64,000 bases of DNA from Clostridia bacterium (GTDB taxonomy: Bacteria; Bacillota; Clostridia; UBA1381; UBA9506): NCBI GenBank assembly GCA_017546245.1, contig JAFYXI010000034.1:929-64928 (forward strand). Reading direction: 5' to 3'. Positions 3,678 through 43,305 of the stretch are shown one piece after another. The notes beneath the pieces were generated by a model. That model had not been told where the DNA came from and searched no databases. It worked only from the letters and a program-made list of their open reading frames with translations. Position 1 is the stretch's first letter; each line of letters opens with the position of its first letter. The translations under genes were made by a program, and so were the position numbers.

Positions 3678-3716
3678 TGTATAAGGGATGCTTTAGTATC
3701 CCTTATACATTTATTG
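3678..3716 (+). terminator. Intrinsic terminator after rpmE
   Basis: 12-bp stem TGTATAAGGGAT / ATCCCTTATACA with a 7-nt loop, followed by TTTATT. Confidence 0.6.
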
Positions 3717-3767
3717 CAATTACAATTTTAGGTTATGGATATATACGACTCTGACGGAGGTGTGAGT

Positions 3768-4001
3768 ATGTTACTGGCGGTTCAAATTCTGCATGTTATT
3801 ATTGCGCTTGTGCTGATTGTTGTTGTTTTATTCCAGTCAGGTAAATCAGCAGGCTTATCAGGTTCCATCGCCGGCGGTGCCGATACATTCTTTGGCAAGA
3901 ACAAAGGCAGAACAATTGATGCAATATTGTCTAAGTGGACATCTGTTATTGCTATTCTGTTCCTTATAACGTCGATTGCGTTGTTCTTCCTGAATAAATA
4001 A
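3768..4001 (+). CDS. secG: Preprotein translocase subunit SecG
   Basis: 77-aa two-TM protein: MLLAVQILHVIIALVLIVVVLFQSGKSAGLSGSIAGGADTFFGKNKGRT... is the typical SecG signature. Confidence 0.85.
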   Translation: MLLAVQILHVIIALVLIVVVLFQSGKSAGLSGSIAGGADTFFGKNKGRTIDAILSKWTSVIAILFLITSIALFFLNK

Positions 4002-36339: not shown

Positions 36340-37213
36340 ATCCCAAACCTCCTAACTCATAGATGAATACTTCTTCAAGCGTTAATGCAAGTGTATCTAA
36401 AATAATCGGCGAATAATCTGATATAAGGGCTTTTATTTCGTCTATATTTCCCTTTACTATCAGGCTGTATACCGAACCGAACTGCTCAAAGTGCAGAATT
36501 TCAATTTTTTCTTTAATTTCTTCAGGAAATGCCTCTTTAAACGCAGTCTGAACCTTGTGGATGTTGCCCTTAGCCTCGTCTAACGATTTTTCTAAAACAA
36601 CTTGTCCTTTATGCATTATTCCAACATGGTCGCACACATCTTCAAGCTCTCTTAAGTTATGGCTTGATACTAAAACAGTCATTTCTCTTTCTGCAACGTC
36701 AGAAAGCAGCAGCTTCCACACATTTTTTCTCATAACGGGGTCTAAGCCGTCAACCGGCTCGTCCAGAATTAAAACGTCAGGCTTTGTGCATATTCCCAGC
36801 CAAAACGCAACCTGCTTTTGCATACCTTTTGACAGTTTTTTAATTTTGCGCTTTAAGTCAATTTTAAAAACTTCTTTTAAAGCTAAAAATCTTTCTTCAT
36901 CCCAGTCAGGATATAAACCCTTATAAAAATTTGCCATATCGCGAATGGAATATGTAGAAAAGAAATATAAATCATCGCCTATACAAACAGTTTTTGTTTT
37001 TAGCGGTATATTTTCGTAAACCGGCTGATTATCAATCTTAATTTCACCGCTGTCTTGCTTATAAACACCCGTTAAGTGCTTTATTATTGTGGTTTTGCCG
37101 GCTCCGTTAGGACCAATAAGCCCGTAAACCGTTCCTTTTTTAACATTAAGCGAAAGGTCGTTTAATGCCTTAATATCGTCAAAGGTTTTATTAATATTAC
37201 TGACTTTAATCAT
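36314..37213 (-). CDS. ABC transporter ATP-binding protein
   Basis: Walker A GPNGAGKTT, signature LSKGMQKQ and Walker B ILILDEP. Confidence 0.9.
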   Translation of the reverse strand: MIKVSNINKTFDDIKALNDLSLNVKKGTVYGLIGPNGAGKTTIIKHLTGVYKQDSGEIKIDNQPVYENIPLKTKTVCIGDDLYFFSTYSIRDMANFYKGLYPDWDEERFLALKEVFKIDLKRKIKKLSKGMQKQVAFWLGICTKPDVLILDEPVDGLDPVMRKNVWKLLLSDVAEREMTVLVSSHNLRELEDVCDHVGIMHKGQVVLEKSLDEAKGNIHKVQTAFKEAFPEEIKEKIEILHFEQFGSVYSLIVKGNIDEIKALISDYSPIILDTLALTLEEVFIYELGGLGYETTGIIL

Positions 37214-37596
37214 TAATTACCACCCCTTTTTATGTTCTCAAATATTTTATCGACTTCGTGTTTTAAGCTTTCGGGACTTTCTCCGCGATACAAAAGCTCT
37301 GCGGCGGCGTCCTGAAGATTTTTGTAAAGTGCAGATATAAATTCTTCGGTTTGCGCCTTTTTAATTGGTGCAATAAAGCTGCCCTTTGCCCTTTGCGAAT
37401 AAATAAATCCCTCTTCTTCAAGCTCTTTATAGGCTCTTTGTATGGTATTGGGATTAATCGCAAGACTTGATGCCAGCTCTCGTACAGACGGAATTTTGTC
37501 ATGCTCATTAACAGCACCCGAAATAATCAGCTCTTTAAACTTTTCTTTAATTTGCTCGTATAGCGGTCTTCGGTCGCTGAAATCAAGATTTATCAT
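37213..37596 (-). CDS. GntR-family (YtrA-like) transcriptional regulator
   Basis: 127 aa with the winged-HTH segment KIPSVRELASSLAINPNTIQRAYKELEEEGFIYSQRAKGSF. It is the first gene of a GntR-ABC operon. Confidence 0.85.
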   Translation of the reverse strand: MINLDFSDRRPLYEQIKEKFKELIISGAVNEHDKIPSVRELASSLAINPNTIQRAYKELEEEGFIYSQRAKGSFIAPIKKAQTEEFISALYKNLQDAAAELLYRGESPESLKHEVDKIFENIKRGGN

Positions 37597-37622
37597 AATG
37601 CCCCTCCTTTCTGATTGTATTA

Positions 37623-37666
37623 ACTGTACTAATACATATAATACAGTATGTTTTTTGATTTGTCAA
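37623..37666 (-). promoter_or_regulatory. Promoter plus palindromic operator of the GntR-ABC operon
   Basis: On the minus strand: TTGACA (37666-37661), a 17-nt spacer, then TATTAT (37643-37638). The inverted repeat ACTGTA...TACAGT (37623-37647) overlaps the -10. Confidence 0.45.
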
Positions 37667-37814
37667 TAGGTTTATTAAAAATTTTATAATTAGAGAGGTA
37701 AATTTTGGTTTGACAATCTGACGAGGCTTTTTATCAGTGCCAACATAATGCGCTTAACCAAAATTTATTTAATCATTGCTTGATTTTAAGCTTTTAGTAT
37801 GCTATAATAATATT

Positions 37815-38030
37815 TGCTAAACAAATTAAATATAAAAAAACGGGTATGTTTCTTATTGCAAGGAATACTATACTCTTTTTTTGCATACCTTATACATCGC
37901 GTACAATTTGTTAAAAACGCAAATTCGGCGATGTAGAATAGGTTTGTTAAAAACTCGTTTTATTTAATTTGTTTAGCGACAATCGAATTTGCGTTTTTTA
38001 TGCGCTGACTTCGGTTGGCGCATTTTTTAT
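37815..38030 (+). ncRNA. Unclassified structured ncRNA candidate, copy 1
   Basis: Promoter TTGATT (37780-37785), 17 nt, then TGcTATAAT (37800-37808). Perfect 17-bp long-range helix 37816-37832 / 37961-37977. Perfect 15-bp helix 37913-37927 / 37984-37998. Terminator ATGCGCTGAC-TTCG-GTTGGCGCAT (38000-38023) plus T6. It contains no ORF. Confidence 0.55.
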
Positions 38031-38033
38031 TTT

Positions 38034-38060
38034 CAGGAGGGCACAGAGACCCTCCCCTAC
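38034..38060 (-). repeat. Solo GTAGG-hairpin (REP-like) unit
   Basis: The minus strand reads GTAGG-GGAGGG-TCTCTGTG-CCCTCC-TG. It has the same GTAGG-plus-hairpin grammar as the core of the MITE-like element. Confidence 0.4.
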
Positions 38061-38132
38061 GATATATTTTATTAATACCAATTAATTTTTATAAAATTGT
38101 TGATAAAATATTAAGAATGTGATAATATAAAT

Positions 38133-38336
38133 ATGCCAAGTATAATTAAATAATAGAAAAAATTGAGTATTTTTTAGGAGTATCATACTCTTTTTTTGCA
38201 ATACTATCTTTGGAAACGTTAAAAACGCGACTCCATTAGATAGTGTTGCAGATATTCCTGTTCGTTATTTAATTATACTTGGCGGTAGTCGGAGTTCGCG
38301 TTTTTATGCGCTGACTTCGGTTGGCGCATTTTTTAA
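38133..38336 (+). ncRNA. Unclassified structured ncRNA candidate, copy 2
   Basis: Promoter TTGATA (38100-38105), 17 nt, then TAATAT (38123-38128). Perfect 19-bp helix 38135-38153 / 38265-38283. 14-bp helix with one bulge 38221-38234 / 38291-38305. The terminator at 38306-38329 plus T5 is identical to that of copy 1. Confidence 0.55.
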
Positions 38337-38363
38337 TTTATAAACAAAACAGGGGGCAAGAAT

Positions 38364-38570
38364 ATGTGCAAAGATAACGAAAAAGCTAAAAAAATTGATA
38401 CTAAGGCAATGTCGGAATCGTTAGAAGACTTAAGCGAAAAAGAAATTGAGCTTTTAGCAGAAGCATATTCATTAATTGATGCATTTGAATTACTGCCGAT
38501 AAAAAAACAGGCTGAAATATTGGTTGAGCTTAATGAAATGGAAGACGCCGACAATCATGAAGATAACTGA
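38364..38570 (+). CDS. Small acidic hypothetical protein (68 aa)
   Basis: RBS AGGGGG lies 8 nt before the ATG. The protein is highly acidic and probably helical (SEKEIELLAEAYSLIDAFELLPIKKQAEILVELNEMEDADNHEDN). I recognise no family. Confidence 0.45.
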   Translation: MCKDNEKAKKIDTKAMSESLEDLSEKEIELLAEAYSLIDAFELLPIKKQAEILVELNEMEDADNHEDN

Positions 38571-38668: not shown

Positions 38669-38860
38669 TTATTTAATGCTGTTTTCGTAAGCTTCTACCA
38701 TCTTTTTAACCATCTGTCCGCCGATAGAACCTGCTTCTTTAGAGGTTAAGTCGCCGTTATAACCCTGTTTTAAGTTAACGCCTACTTCGTTTGCAACTTC
38801 CATTTTGAACTTGTTAAGAGCTTCTTTTGCTTCAGGAACAACTTTTTTATTACTTGTCAT
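38669..38860 (-). CDS. Small acid-soluble spore protein, alpha/beta type
   Basis: 63 aa: MTSNKKVVPEAKEALNKFKMEVANEVGVNLKQGYNGDLTSKEAGSIGGQMVKKMVE matches the two conserved alpha/beta SASP blocks. RBS AAGGAGTG. The track ORF start at 38968 was rejected. Confidence 0.9.
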   Translation of the reverse strand: MTSNKKVVPEAKEALNKFKMEVANEVGVNLKQGYNGDLTSKEAGSIGGQMVKKMVEAYENSIK

Positions 38861-38906
38861 TTTGTTACACTCCTTATAAAATATAAAAAATTTATTCGAG
38901 GTCATC

Positions 38907-38936
38907 GCCTCGATACTATTTTGTTCAATACACAAG
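38907..38936 (-). promoter_or_regulatory. Possible forespore (sigma-G/F type) promoter of the SASP gene
   Basis: The minus strand reads TGAATA, 17 nt, then CAAAATA. This resembles the GnATA ... CAtxxTA forespore-promoter pattern. The assignment is by eye only. Confidence 0.3.
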
Positions 38937-39082
38937 TATATATTCAAAAAAATGATGTATTTTGTCAAGAAGTTTTTTCCTTTAAAGTAATTTTTTAAAA
39001 CTCATATTAATAATAATGCAAACGGTAACATTTTTTGATTAAATTCATATAATATCACTACGGATAATCAGGAGGTGTTATA

Positions 39083-39793
39083 ATGCGGCTTGGCAACAAA
39101 AAAAGAGTTTGTTTTCATATAAGCAGCGCGAGCAAACGAAAATGGTCGGCCTTTTTGTGGTTTATATTTATATTGGCATTGTGCACCGCAACCTTTTTGT
39201 GCTTTTTAAAAACTGTGCGTCCTGTTATGGTTGAGCTTGCAAAATCTAAGGCTACATATCTTGCAAATCAGCTTATAGATAAATCTGTTTCAGAAATTTT
39301 TAAAAAGCAGCCTATTAAATATTCAGATATTATAAGGTTAGAAAAAGACCTTGACGGAAATATCCGTGCGGTGCAATCTGACCTTTTTGAAGTAAACAGC
39401 TTAAAAACAGAGATAGCTTTAGATATTCAGAAAAAAATGGCAGATGCATCGAAAGCAGATTTTAAAATTCCGTCAGGAAGCTTAACGGGAATTGATTTTT
39501 TGGCAGGCACAGGACCATATATTAACTTTAATTTAATGCCGTACGGTAACGCACAGGTCGATTTTATATCCAGCTTCGAAACCGCAGGAGTAAATCAGAC
39601 GCGGCTTATGGTAAATTTAAATGTTAAAACAAATTTTGCGCTTTTAATGCCTACGGTAAACACAAGCTGTACGGTTGAAAATACTGTGCCGTTATTTCAG
39701 ACCATTGTGGTCGGCGAAGTTCCCGAAAGCTTTTTTAATGTAGACAGAGCGGATGACGCGCTGGTTGATGATGCTTTAGATATGGCACAATAA
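39083..39793 (+). CDS. yunB: Sporulation protein YunB
   Basis: 236 aa with an N-terminal TM segment. YunB-like blocks: IRLEKDLDGNIRAVQSDLFEVNSLKTEIALDIQ, IPSGSLTG and MPYGNAQVDFISSFETAGVNQT. Confidence 0.75.
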   Translation: MRLGNKKRVCFHISSASKRKWSAFLWFIFILALCTATFLCFLKTVRPVMVELAKSKATYLANQLIDKSVSEIFKKQPIKYSDIIRLEKDLDGNIRAVQSDLFEVNSLKTEIALDIQKKMADASKADFKIPSGSLTGIDFLAGTGPYINFNLMPYGNAQVDFISSFETAGVNQTRLMVNLNVKTNFALLMPTVNTSCTVENTVPLFQTIVVGEVPESFFNVDRADDALVDDALDMAQ

Positions 39794-39929
39794 AAATATT
39801 AATTTTTTTGTTGATTTTTTGCTTAAAATATGAGAAAATATATCTATTAAGTGCAGTTGTTTGTTGTTTGGAATAAGTTGCCCTTTTAATAAGCATACTA
39901 TGGTTATTAAATTAAAAGGAGAGCAATTT

Positions 39930-40673
39930 ATGAACAACGAATCAGTTAACGAAAAAGATAAAAAAGAAGAGGAAAATCAGCAAGAGCAAAACAGCGAAAA
40001 CATTCGTGATTTCGGCAGCAGCTGTATAAAAAATTCTAAAGGCAATATTCATTGTCTTACGATAGTCGGTCAGGTAGAGGGGCATATGCTTCTTCCTCCG
40101 CAGAATAAAACCACCAAGTACGAGCACGTTATACCGCTTTTAGTATCTGTCGAAGAAGACGAAAATATTGACGGTTTAATTGTTATTTTAAATACCGTCG
40201 GCGGAGATGTTGAAGCAGGTCTTGCGATTTCTGAAATGATTTCGAGTATGACAAAACCGGTTGTTTCGCTGGTGCTTGGCGGTGGGCACAGCATTGGCGT
40301 TCCGCTTGCGGTTTCGTCTAAACATTCGTTTATAGCACCATCTGCTACGATGACAATTCATCCCATACGTATGAACGGACTGGTTATAGGTGTTCCGCAA
40401 ACGTATGAATATTTTAATAAAATGCAGGAACGTGTAGTTAATTTTGTAACAAAAAATTCTAATATATCACGCGAAAAATTTACCGAGCTTATGATGAAAA
40501 CGGGCGAAATGGCAAATGATGTAGGCTGTATTATTATGGGCGAAGAAGCAGTAAAAAGCGGCTTGATTGATGAGATTGGCGGCATACGCGAGGCTTTAAG
40601 CTGCCTTTATAATATGATAGACGAAAACAAAAAGGAAAAGGATGCGACAAAAGAAAATGACAAAAAATCTTGA
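39930..40673 (+). CDS. tepA: ClpP-family translocation-enhancing protein TepA-like
   Basis: Start at MNNESV (RBS AAAGGAGAG). TepA/ClpP-like core: [32 protein letters not shown]...[19 protein letters not shown]...GGGHSIG. Confidence 0.7.
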
Positions 40674-41055
40674 GGTTGGAATAAAAAACAGATTAGAAAT
40701 TAAAGTTGACGAAACAAAAAGTGCAATTAGTGCCGGCAGCGGAACTCTGCCAGTGTTTGGCACTCCGTTTGTTGCGGCCTTAATGGAGCAGACAGCAGAA
40801 GAAAGTGTGCGAGGCTGTTTAGAAGAAGGACAGGCTACTGTTGGCACAAAGCTTGTTTTAAATCATACAGCGGCAACAACTATGGGGCGTACCGCTTTTT
40901 GTGAATCTGAACTGGTTTTGGTTGACCGCAGACGTTTAGTGTTTAAAGTTGTTGTTTGCGACGATGCAGGTCAGGTAGCAGACGCAGAGCACGAACGTTT
41001 TATTGTAGATGTTGAAAAATTTATGGATAAAGCAGGTAAAAGGGGTGTCGAATAA
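40657..41055 (+). CDS. Hotdog-fold thioesterase family protein
   Basis: About 132 aa: [21 protein letters not shown]...[29 protein letters not shown] resembles the FlK/YiiD-type hotdog fold. The start MTKNLEV overlaps the tepA end. Confidence 0.6.
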
Positions 41056-42725
41056 TGCTTACTGATATAGAAATAGCTCAGGGAGCGAAAATGCAGCCGA
41101 TTACAAAGGTTGCAGAAAAAATCGGTATAGATGCCGAAGAGCTTGAATTATACGGAAAGTATAAGGCAAAGCTATCTAAAGATGTATGGAACAGAGTTAA
41201 ATCAAATCCTGACGGAAAGCTGGTTTTGGTTACTGCAATTAATCCGACTCCGGCAGGCGAGGGCAAAACAACTACAACTGTCGGTTTAGGTCAGGCAATG
41301 GCAAAAATCAATAAAAATGCAATTATCGCACTTCGTGAGCCGTCGCTCGGTCCTGTTATGGGCATTAAGGGCGGCGCGGCAGGCGGCGGTTGGGCACAGG
41401 TTGTTCCTATGGAGGATATAAATCTGCATTTTACCGGCGATATGCATGCGCTTACTGCGGCAAATAATCTGCTTTGCGCTATGATTGATAACCACATCAA
41501 GCAGGGCAACATTTTAAATATTGACCCTACAAAAGTAATTTTCCCTCGTGTTATGGATATGAATGACCGAGCCTTAAGAGATGTTGTTGTAGGTCTGGGC
41601 GGCACAATAAACGGAAATCCGCGTCAGGACAGATTTGTTATAACAGTCGCATCTGAATTGATGGCAATTTTGTGCTTGGCAAGCGATTTGGCAGACTTAA
41701 AAGAACGTATCAGCCGTATAATTATCGGTTATACATACGAAGGTAAAGAAGTAAAAGCAGGTGATTTAAACGTTCAGGGTGCAATGACTGCGCTTTTAAA
41801 AGATGCAATCAAGCCTAACCTTGTTCAAACACTTGAAAATACCCCTTGCTTAATGCACGGTGGACCGTTTGCAAATATCGCACACGGCTGTAACAGTATT
41901 CAGGCAACTAAAATTGCGTTAAAGCTTGCTGATTACGTAATAACCGAGGCTGGCTTTGGTGCAGATTTGGGTGCAGAAAAGTTTTTAGATATAAAATGCC
42001 GCGCGGCAGGTCTTAAACCCTCTGCGGTTGTTATAGTTGCTACTGTTCGTGCTTTAAAATATAACGGCGGAGTAGCTAAAGCTGACTTGGCAGAAGAAAA
42101 TTTAGATGCTTTAAAAGCAGGTATAAGCAATTTAGGAAAGCATATTGAAAATATGCGTAAATATAATGTAAACGTGCTTGTTGCAATAAACCGTTTCGGA
42201 ACAGATTCTGAAGCTGAGCTTGATTATATAGCCGAATATTGTAAAGAACAGGGTGCAGAGTTTGCATTAAGTGAGGTTTTTGCAAAAGGCGGAGAAGGCG
42301 GCATAGAGCTGGCAGAAAAGCTGGTTGAAACATTAGAAACCAAAGAAAGCAGCTTTGCCCCGATTTACGACGAGAAAAAGCCTATTAAAGAAAAAATAGA
42401 AACCATTGTAAAAGAAATTTACGGCGGTGACGGAGTAATTTATACCCCGGCTGCCGAAAAACAGATTCAAACACTTACCGAAAACGGATACGACAAGCTG
42501 CCGATTTGTATGGCAAAAACTCAGTATTCATTATCAGATAATCCGAGTCTTTTAGGTCGCCCGAGCGGATTTAAAGTGACTGTTAAAGAGGTTAAAGCAT
42601 ATGCAGGTGCAGGCTTTGTTGCTGTTTTAACAGGTGATATTATGACAATGCCCGGTCTTCCTAAGGCACCGGCAGCCCTTAACATCGACGTAGACGATAA
42701 CGGTGTAATAACTGGTTTATTCTAA
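41055..42725 (+). CDS. fhs: Formate--tetrahydrofolate ligase
   Basis: 556 aa with canonical FTHFS sequence ([52 protein letters not shown]). Confidence 0.95.
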
Positions 42726-42762
42726 TTTTATATAAATTTCATAGCAAAAGGAGAATGACAAA

Positions 42763-43305
42763 ATGAAAGATTTAAAAGGAACAAAAACAGAGGCAAATTT
42801 AATGGCGGCATTTGCCGGCGAATCTCAGGCAAGAAACAAATATACATACTATGCGTCAAAGGCTAAAAAAGACGGATATGTTCAGATTGCAGCTTTATTC
42901 GAAGAAACTGCAAACAACGAAAAAGAACATGCAAAAATTTGGTTTAAGCTTCTTCACGACGGCGGTATTCCTGATACCATGACAAACTTAGCAGATGCCG
43001 CAGCAGGCGAAAACTATGAATGGACAGATATGTACAAGGGCTTTGCAGAAACAGCTAAAGAAGAAGGCTTTGACAAGATTGCGGCTTTATTTGAAATGGT
43101 AGGCAAAATTGAAAAGCATCACGAAGAAAGATACCTTGCTCTTTTAGATAACGTTAAAAAAGAAACCGTATTCTCAAAAGACGGAGATGTTATCTGGCAG
43201 TGCGCTAACTGCGGACACATTATGGTTGGCAAAAAAGCTCCTGAGCTTTGCCCTGTTTGTGCTCATCCTAAGGCTTACTTCCAGATTCTTGCTGAAAATT
43301 ATTAA
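42763..43305 (+). CDS. rbr: Rubrerythrin
   Basis: 180 aa with a ferritin-like di-iron domain ([25 protein letters not shown]) and a C-terminal rubredoxin CANCG...CPVC. Confidence 0.9.

Follow-up and report, generated by a model that had tools for sequence, protein, structure and literature searches.

Tandem structured RNAs in a gut Clostridia genome and their relatives, probable 5′ leaders acting as bistable transcription attenuators

What is the function of two similar RNA units that lie head to tail in an ORF-poor gap, just ahead of a small open reading frame (ORF)? We addressed this question in a 64-kb stretch of DNA (the window: 64,000 nucleotides (nt) of contig JAFYXI010000034.1, assembly GCA_017546245.1) from an uncultured Clostridia metagenome-assembled genome (MAG) of ruminant gut metagenomes. 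The gap covers 767 base pairs (bp) at positions 37597-38363 and is flanked by a GntR gene on the - strand (37213-37596) and by an ORF of 68 amino acids (aa) on the + strand (38364-38570). An original prediction had placed two head-to-tail units of structured non-coding RNA in this gap, and we located both on the + strand, at about 37814-38029 (unit 1) and 38133-38335 (unit 2). It had further described the gap as free of ORFs, which was incorrect in that ORFs of at least 30 aa do occur, none of them conserved between the units. We found that the units are real, strongly structured RNAs of a new family in gut Clostridia. Moreover, comparison of sequences and calculated folds leads us to regard it as probable, with moderate confidence, that they represent an undescribed family of 5′ leader RNAs acting as bistable transcription attenuators, in which the choice between two folds would set termination.

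Anatomy of the units and of their family

A separate sigma-A-type promoter precedes each unit, with a 17-nt spacer and a TG extension at its -10 box, and both units end in the same terminator, an identical ATGCGCTGACTTCGGTTGGCGCAT followed by a T-run (38000-38023 and 38306-38329), which was matched twice in the window with zero matches expected. Helix A, which closes the 5′ end of each unit, comprises 20 nt in unit 1 (95% complementary) and 19 of 19 pairs in unit 2; its sequence differs between the units while complementarity is kept. Helix C is formed by 15 of 15 pairs in unit 1, and by a perfect 11-bp core with a bulged extension in unit 2. When the units were folded against dinucleotide shuffles, the z scores were -7.4 for unit 1 and -10.3 for unit 2, with none of 200 shuffles folding as well. 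All the elements listed in the original prediction were thus recovered, in place or within a few bases, and its proposal of a structured RNA is borne out by these scores together with the compensatory changes in helices A and C. A covariance model of the family (R1) matched unit 1 with 113.6 bits (E = 3e-24) and unit 2 with 89.7 bits, and detected no further copy in the 64-kb window beyond these two.

The family comprises more than 20 sequence lineages, spread over more than 50 contigs of metagenomes and MAGs from gut and rumen. A three-box DNA pattern run over 185,579 species genomes gave two true members, L031 (an Oscillospiraceae MAG) and L026, and a two-box pattern run over metagenomes gave about 30 more; these patterns fix the loop box and GCGTTTT. 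Pattern-independent sampling was carried out by protein synteny with a WYL/WCX regulator that is transcribed divergently from several members. Three lineages (L113, L122 and L128) were added by this sampling, which relied on no DNA pattern; they carry the loop boxes GGTAAAAACGC and GCTAAAAATGC and show all the structural features of the family.

The closest relative, L004 (GCA_054278715.1), whose GntR protein is 98% identical, carries a single unit before a homologue of the 68-aa ORF (52% identity). This unit is orthologous to unit 1 in its 5′ flank and body and to unit 2 in its 3′ flank. Compared with unit 1, its helix A shows a compensatory change (GCTAAAC/GTTTAGC to GCGAAAC/GTTTCGC) and its helix C a compensatory 1-nt insertion in both strands. 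The tandem state of the window and the single state of L004 are linked via recombination across an identical 45-nt 3′ segment, to which we assign no polarity. The predicted tandem pair is therefore real in the window and unusual in the family, where the usual form is a single unit directly before an ORF. In contigs with exactly the same 68-aa protein (same strain), the intergenic region was identical.

A common architecture was found across the family, in leaders of about 160-240 nt. Of 18 lineages, 16 carry a -10 box with TG extension 6-8 nt ahead of the start of helix A. Together with arm D, this helix makes up a 5′-terminal rod of about 50 bp in total, from which hairpin B (consensus GGGG-N-UAUACCC-U4-7) usually branches at a variable position; hairpin B is altered in L004 and missing from L026 and L034. 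The apical loop of arm D has the consensus G-N-U-AAAAA-Y-GC, and this loop and hairpin B are the only conserved non-helical sequences of the family. Helix C consists of the apical box and the 3′ side of the arm D tip, which are complementary to a strand termed X that starts 6-8 nt past helix A and ends in GCGUUUUU right before the terminator. Two boxes that had been described as common to both units find their place here. The box GTTAAAAACGC is present in both (37910-37920 and 38218-38228) and belongs to the apical region. The box ATACTCTTTTTTTGCA is likewise found in both (37870-37885 and 38185-38200), as the 3′ half of hairpin B, and is not conserved as such in the wider family. Hairpin B with its U-run, proposed as an internal attenuator, is kept in most members, though its stem is weak and two lineages do without it.

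The helices are backed by covariation. On a MAFFT alignment (A2), 95% of the helix A cells were paired and 12 of its 14 pairs had changed on both sides; helix C was paired in 87% of its cells with two-sided changes at 6 of 16 pairs, and the terminator was 96-99% paired. On an alignment derived from the covariance model (A4), which covers the pattern-independent lineages and, being structure-fitted, is biased towards that structure, helix C reached 92.8% pairing and two-sided changes at 8 of 16 pairs, and the terminator 99.6% pairing and two-sided changes at 8 of 10. Slid controls, in which the partner columns were moved by 1-3 positions, gave 32-46% on A2 and 32-59% overall. Moreover, the rod pairs across 17 lineages contained 103 G-U against 2 A-C 1x1 mismatches, and the sense strand folded better than its reverse complement by 7-23 kcal/mol, indicating that selection on the pairing acts at the level of the RNA and on the sense strand.

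In agreement with the original prediction, which recognised no known RNA family, a search with Rfam 15 gave no match at gathering thresholds across the whole window. At E values up to 10, the unit region gave chance matches only, the best being mir-3045 with 23 bits against a cut-off of 90, and 13 related loci gave no match. The T-box model did not match even at E up to 10, and the antiterminator loop varies across the family (UGGU, UAGU, UUGU, UUAU), which does not fit a T-box. No CsrA (GGA), ANTAR hexaloop, RAT or TRAP motif was seen on reading the sequences, and literature keyword searches returned no account of such an element.

Several other identities were considered and rejected. For the end of a miniature inverted-repeat transposable element or an insertion sequence (IS), the conservation runs too far: it passes both arms and takes in the promoter 5′ of them and X with the terminator 3′ of them. 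Only the two tandem copies, moreover, occur in the window. A leader peptide was considered from the TAA in GTTAAAAACGC, which closes a 22-codon ORF in unit 1, but frame, start and Shine-Dalgarno sequence are not kept, as read by eye in unit 2, L004, L033 and L051. A phage origin was dismissed after the family patterns gave only chance matches within coding regions in IMG/VR and no viral members. The terminator was also discarded as a family marker. Its exact 20-mer GCGCTGACTTCGGTTGGCGC (window 38002-38021 and 38308-38327), with a T-run, is present in 11 IMG/VR viral contigs (L010-L020) in at least three unrelated sequence contexts, which indicates a recurrent strand-specific terminator module with two G-U pairs. 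As for the apical loop, a YUNR U-turn would fit UUAA of the main group, but the pattern-independent members carry GUAA or CUAA. A fold-back three-way junction placing the loop beside X was not supported by the lengths of helix A and arm D, which are unmatched but have a roughly constant sum of about 50 bp.

Alternative pairings of the switch strand

The hallmarks of a transcription attenuator were found in the family, namely a promoter-proximal terminator directly before a same-strand ORF, an antiterminator pairing and an anti-antiterminator pairing. A stretch of 19 nt, in which the terminal GCG of helix A is followed by the linker GAC(A/U)AUC and by X, was found to be complementary to all parts of the terminator (5′ half, loop and 3′ half). 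This complementarity accounts for the conservation of the linker and of the 'UUCG' loop, and it points to a terminator/antiterminator/anti-antiterminator leader and not to a free-standing small RNA (sRNA). Across the family, the calculated energies range from -18 to -26 kcal/mol for the antiterminator duplex and from -12.6 to -20 for the hairpin of the terminator. In unit 1 the values are -17.8 against -13.5 kcal/mol (p = 0.014 against shuffles) and in unit 2 -22.2 against -13.5 (p = 0.012), and the full-length minimum-free-energy fold of unit 2 includes the antiterminator. With 500 shuffles, z was mostly about -3 to -4.6 and p was at most 0.014 in 12 of 17 lineages; p was 0.006 for L004 and at most 0.006 for each of L113, L122 and L128. 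An earlier version of this test, with the 5′ half and the loop of the terminator as the target, was weak for unit 1, L004 and L053, and the full-terminator test was used instead.

On the alignment, X and the terminator were paired in 84.7% of the cells, against 31-50% in slid controls. Moreover, where the terminator diverges, a fitting X was found with it: AGCUAUGCG with UGCGUAGCU in L026 and L034, and GGGGCUAUGCG with GUGUGUAGUUCC in L113, which has a different terminator. Similarly, an enlarged terminator loop UUAGAUUU in the L043 group is matched by AAAUCUAA in X.

The two folds that compete for the apical strand were nearly isoenergetic, with -17.5 to -26 kcal/mol for arm D and -16 to -24 for helix C (-22.5 against -19.5 in unit 1). 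This fits the suggestion of the original prediction that the folds of helices A and C, if not pseudoknot-like, are mutually exclusive, arm D inside helix A being the part of the rod concerned. When the energies were summed, the state with arm D and the antiterminator was favoured by about 2-8 kcal/mol. As this state is lower in energy and would also be the first to form during transcription, the default calculated for the leaders would be read-through (ON), and an input would be needed for OFF.

From these results we propose the following mechanism. A constitutive-looking sigma-A promoter would start the RNA at the first base of helix A, and the RNA would fold into the 5′ rod of helix A and arm D, usually with hairpin B at its side, presenting G-N-U-AAAAA-Y-GC in the apical loop. 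The 19-24 nt just 3′ of the rod (linker and X) would then have two alternative partners. One is the apical loop with the 3′ side of the arm D tip, which would give helix C, an anti-antiterminator of 14-17 bp; the other is the complete terminator sequence, which would give an antiterminator of 17-19 bp. With X held in helix C, the terminator hairpin would form, transcription would stop and an RNA of about 200 nt would be released. With arm D closed, X would take up the terminator strands, and RNA polymerase would read into the ORF 20-35 nt downstream. In the window, unit 2 would control the 68-aa ORF in this manner, and unit 1 would be an extra copy upstream, which may provide an initial attenuation step for the RNAs made from its own promoter or may be an orphan RNA gene.

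A number of points weigh against this proposal. For most members, the search patterns demanded the helix C core and the loop box, so that the sequence conservation of these parts is partly an ascertainment effect, and it was tested only by the three pattern-independent lineages, the window and L004. In the antiterminator, none of 17 pairs in the main group changed on both sides; the changes are one-sided and usually lead to G-U. Since two-sided changes are nearly absent there, support for the antiterminator comes from conserved complementarity and from the three divergent lineages. Nearest-neighbour energies cannot score the pseudoknot of helices A and C, and nested energies prefer the rod by 11-25 kcal/mol over a helix C fold without helix A. 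Helix C crosses helix A, and X lies at the base of the rod with the loop at the apex of about 50 bp, so arm D must open; helix C formation in cis is thus an assumption of the model. Furthermore, the ORF lies 45-147 nt away in five lineages, and three units are not followed by an intact ORF: unit 1 of the window and L034 lack one altogether, and that of L053 is truncated. Read-through may also be leaky rather than regulated.

Within the attenuator reading, the input could act at the apical hairpin or at hairpin B, and we consider a macromolecule or an RNA-RNA contact somewhat more likely than a metabolite because a conserved junction core is missing from the rod and the genes under control do not share a function. 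The candidate triggers are, in this order, a protein or RNA at either of these hairpins, a riboswitch ligand, pairing of loop and X between molecules, and DNA inversion.

A riboswitch, in which a small molecule or second messenger at the three-way junction, hairpin B or the helix C pseudoknot would shift the balance of arm D and helix C, is in our estimate unlikely. It would share the near-equal energies of the competing helices and a classic terminator/antiterminator expression platform, but those helices, at 14-20 bp, are far longer than usual ligand-gated ones. Moreover, hairpin B is conserved in sequence though the search patterns did not demand it, and A5 of the loop, U5 of X and the U-run after hairpin B could build a triplex-type pocket; yet L026 and L034 have no hairpin B, the rod is free in sequence and length with a variable branch position, and the regulated genes do not share a function.

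Only slightly less doubtful footing can be claimed for a riboswitch than for a contact between molecules, which we also hold to be improbable. Here, the apical loop of a finished leader would kiss the X of a nascent one, be it the same leader or a paralogous one, and free its terminator as negative feedback. The leaders would then constitute a self-referential RNA network, in which finished transcripts pair with the antiterminator strands of nascent leaders with the same loop/X 'address' and force termination. An intact rod keeps X from its own loop, and the preference of the nested models for the rod applies here as well; the calculated read-through default likewise asks for an extra partner of X for OFF. 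We also found near-identical leaders ahead of different lipoprotein genes (L040, L056, L058 and L071), and the cognate loop/X pairs were 4-9 kcal/mol tighter than cross pairs between units 1 and 2. However, covariation is blind to cis versus trans pairing, the matched energies of arm D and helix C suit an intramolecular switch equally, and the 64-kb window holds two copies only.

Table 1. Positions of the unit 1 and unit 2 elements and of the downstream ORF in the window
Feature	Position	Strand	Details
Unit 1 promoter	37780-37808	+	TTGATT-17-TATAAT, TG extension; score 10/12 with TG
Unit 1 RNA	37814-38029	+	about 215 nt, predicted start to terminator T-run
Unit 1 helix A, 5′ arm	37816-37835	+	partner 37958-37977; 20 nt, 95% complementary
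Unit 1 helix A, 3′ arm	37958-37977	+	partner 37816-37835
Unit 1 hairpin B	37842-37882	+	GGGTAT (37842-37847) with ATACTC (37870-37875), then U7 (37876-37882)
Unit 1 arm D	37878-37952	+	unbranched 26-bp hairpin; apical loop bears GTTAAAAACGC (37910-37920) plus helix C 5′ strand (37913-37927)
Unit 1 helix C	37913-37927 with 37984-37998	+	15/15 bp
Unit 1 switch strand (linker and X)	37975-37998	+	37984-37998 for helix C; 37975-37993 for putative antiterminator with whole terminator
Unit 1 intrinsic terminator and T-run	38000-38029	+	10-bp stem, UUCG loop
Unit 2 promoter	38100-38128	+	TTGATA-17-TAATAT with TG; alternative TGtGATAAT at 38118-38126
Unit 2 RNA	38133-38335	+	about 200 nt; putative leader of 68-aa ORF
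Unit 2 helix A	38135-38153 with 38265-38283	+	19/19
Unit 2 hairpin B	38165-38197	+	GAGTAT (38165-38170) with ATACTC (38185-38190), then U7 (38191-38197)
Unit 2 apical box GTTAAAAACGC	38218-38228	+	helix C 5′ strand 38221-38234; loop core AAAAACGC = 38221-38228
Unit 2 helix C	38221-38234 with 38291-38305	+	perfect 11-bp core, extension with one bulge
Unit 2 switch strand (linker and X)	38282-38305	+	helix C 3′ strand 38291-38305; putative antiterminator strand 38282-38300
Unit 2 switch-strand segments	38298-38305; 38286-38296	+	GCGTTTTT; AGTCGGAGTT
Unit 2 intrinsic terminator and T-run	38306-38335	+	
68-aa ORF	38364-38570	+	Shine-Dalgarno AGGGGG 38351-38356

Unit 1 also contains TTTGTTAAAAAC twice, at 37907-37918 and 37943-37954, 36 nt apart; the second copy, reading GTTAAAAACTC, belongs to the 3′ half of arm D. 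The spacer from the terminator of unit 1 to the promoter of unit 2 contains a G+C-rich hairpin, GGAGGGcacagagaCCCTCC, at 38037-38056.

Downstream genes and genomic settings

In 17 lineages (14 plus the three pattern-independent ones), an ORF with a Shine-Dalgarno sequence was found on the same strand 20-35 nt past the T-run, a distance that leaves no space for a separate promoter. The 68-aa ORF of the window starts 29 nt past the T-run of unit 2, and since there is no space for a promoter it can be reached only by read-through of the unit 2 terminator. In L004, L087 and L088, this leader and terminator are likewise followed by a homologue (52-59% identity).

This arrangement bears on the view that the units are free-standing sRNA genes, whose terminated RNAs of about 200 nt act in trans while read-through into the ORF is incidental. 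A plain gene end needs no segment complementary to the whole terminator, and the one found here exceeds shuffled controls; nor did we find a separate conserved target. On the other hand, each unit has a strong promoter and a strong terminator of its own, the 5′ end is buried in a long helix that should stabilise the RNA, and the apical loop looks like one by which an antisense RNA recognises its target. The units without an intact ORF would also agree with sRNA genes, and unit 1 is such an orphan copy, with only the unit 2 promoter found behind its terminator and no ORF. We rate this view as improbable, a shade below pairing between molecules.

Neither Pfam nor PHROG gave a match for the acidic 68-aa protein. 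It was found in only three clusters of a set of 1.8 billion representative proteins, its own and two others at 50% identity, and on this distribution it appears as a lineage-restricted, fast-evolving small protein. The products that the attenuators would control share no common function. They include several lipoproteins (one with DUF4352/DUF5067), domain-less membrane or secreted proteins, proteins of 66-127 aa with no assigned function, an EcoRI-like methylase beside a GmrSD/HNH nuclease, a Cu_amine_oxidN1 protein, a metallo-beta-lactamase-fold protein and a WYL regulator.

Many members occupy the variable cargo slot of an abundant gut element, and others lie in ordinary chromosomal neighbourhoods, as in the window. 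The gene order of this mobile element is Phage_integrase, WYL/WCX regulator, cargo slot, Resolvase and GGGtGRT-domain protein (L056, L058, L071 and L103-L134), and its WYL clusters have up to 568 member sequences. The cargo consists of a leader with a lipoprotein gene or an uncharacterised ORF, of an IS200-type Y1 transposase without leader, or of an HTH_3 gene with another ORF.

In the window, the GntR gene heads an operon of GntR, ABC ATPase and DUF6449 genes on the - strand, and beyond the 68-aa ORF lie genes for SASP, YunB, a Clp-type protease, a thioesterase and formate-tetrahydrofolate ligase. The GntR operon has a strong divergent promoter (11/12, TTGACA-17-TATTAT, 37666-37638, - strand), which overlaps the palindrome TGTATTAACTGTA / TACATATAATACA at 37616-37645, probably a GntR operator. 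Linkage to GntR was rejected as a trait of the family. At 80% protein identity the synteny with the divergent GntR-ABC operon is gone, and those loci have no leader. In L004, a G+C-rich palindromic insertion of about 170 bp (about 3705-3885, - strand), absent from the window, separates the GntR promoter region from the leader promoter. The block from the Clp protease to rubrerythrin (window 38669-43305) is inverted in both L004 (1-3396) and L087, and in these two relatives the SASP and YunB genes are not between the inverted block and the ORF. These differences in gene order place the cassette of leader and ORF at a rearrangement breakpoint. With 52-59% protein identity, against 97-98% for the adjacent GntR, the cassette is also evolving far more rapidly.

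Eight contigs stop within the leader or terminator (L044, L087, L088, L115, L127, L130, L133 and L134), which suggests that the assemblies branch there; such branching could come from variable cargo after a shared leader, from repeated copies or possibly from inversion. A DNA inversion as in cwpV of Clostridioides difficile, with the helix A arms as inverted repeats and a flip that would complement the loop strand, abolish helix C and turn the gene ON, is nevertheless very unlikely: the geometry is similar (arms of 17-20 bp that lie 111-122 bp apart, and a hairpin with U-run about 55-70 nt from the start), the genes are of types that are often phase-variable (lipoproteins, surface proteins, methylase), recombinase genes are close by in the mobile-element loci and those eight contigs end inside the leader, but the pairing extends throughout the interior of the rod and not just over terminal repeats, the excess of G-U over A-C mismatches and the better sense fold are strand-biased, and all complete copies found without a DNA pattern (the window, L001-L004, L113, L114, L122-L126, L128, L129, L131 and L132) have a single orientation.

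If the attenuator reading is correct, these leaders would be a new and fairly widespread regulatory RNA family of uncultured gut and rumen Clostridia (Oscillospiraceae and relatives). They precede genes whose control is little known, for lipoproteins, secreted or small uncharacterised proteins, a restriction-modification methylase and the cargo of integrase/WYL/resolvase elements. The architecture yields clear predictions for mutagenesis, and the covariance model of the family could annotate a recurrent 'empty' intergenic region of gut metagenomes.

Comparison with known systems

In plasmids pT181, pIP501 and pAMbeta1, countertranscript-driven attenuation relies on a loop on a long stem, which pairs with a segment of the nascent leader, and this loop pairing chooses between a pre-emptor helix and the terminator. 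Likewise, the family has a loop on a long stem whose pairing with a leader segment would set an alternative helix against the terminator. In contrast to the plasmid systems, the loop is on the same strand and transcript as its target, and the controlled genes are not replication genes. No antisense promoter of comparable quality was found inside the units, which contain only weak promoter-like sites (9/12) on the - strand. If the improbable network of pairing between transcripts did exist, it would be the sense-encoded counterpart of plasmid countertranscript attenuation for chromosomal and mobile-element cargo genes, and paralogous genes behind identical leaders, as well as orphan units such as unit 1 of the window, would regulate one another.

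Type III toxin-antitoxin loci (toxIN) consist of a promoter, a non-coding RNA with short tandem repeats, a terminator and a read-through ORF, which encodes ToxN. The order of promoter, non-coding RNA, terminator and read-through ORF is the same in our family, whereas the short tandem repeats are absent and the downstream proteins are diverse and not ToxN-like.

In the cwpV switch of C. difficile, imperfect 21-bp repeats lie around 195 bp with the promoter upstream, and in the OFF orientation a terminator lies 60-70 nt from the start (PMC2784873). Inverted repeats of about 20 bp between promoter and ORF, termination in the leader and cell-surface genes are shared with the family (PMC2784873). 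Unlike in cwpV, no second orientation was observed among the complete family copies found without a DNA pattern, the terminator of the family is outside the repeats and its pairing is selected at the RNA level.

The closest parallel in logic is found in the terminator/antiterminator/anti-antiterminator leaders of Firmicutes, such as riboswitch platforms, the PyrR-controlled pyr leader and the T-box. As in these, the terminator of the family lies just before the ORF, a strand 5′ of the terminator can pair with it, and a strand further upstream can sequester that strand. However, the anti-antiterminator of the family sits in the apical loop of a 5′ rod of about 50 bp and not in the closing helix of an aptamer, its helices are unusually long (14-20 bp), the regulated genes are unrelated in function and Rfam holds no match. 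Taken together, the kind of mechanism is a known one, and what is new is the family and its layout, with an anti-antiterminator in the loop of a 5′ rod and an antiterminator strand that spans the whole terminator.

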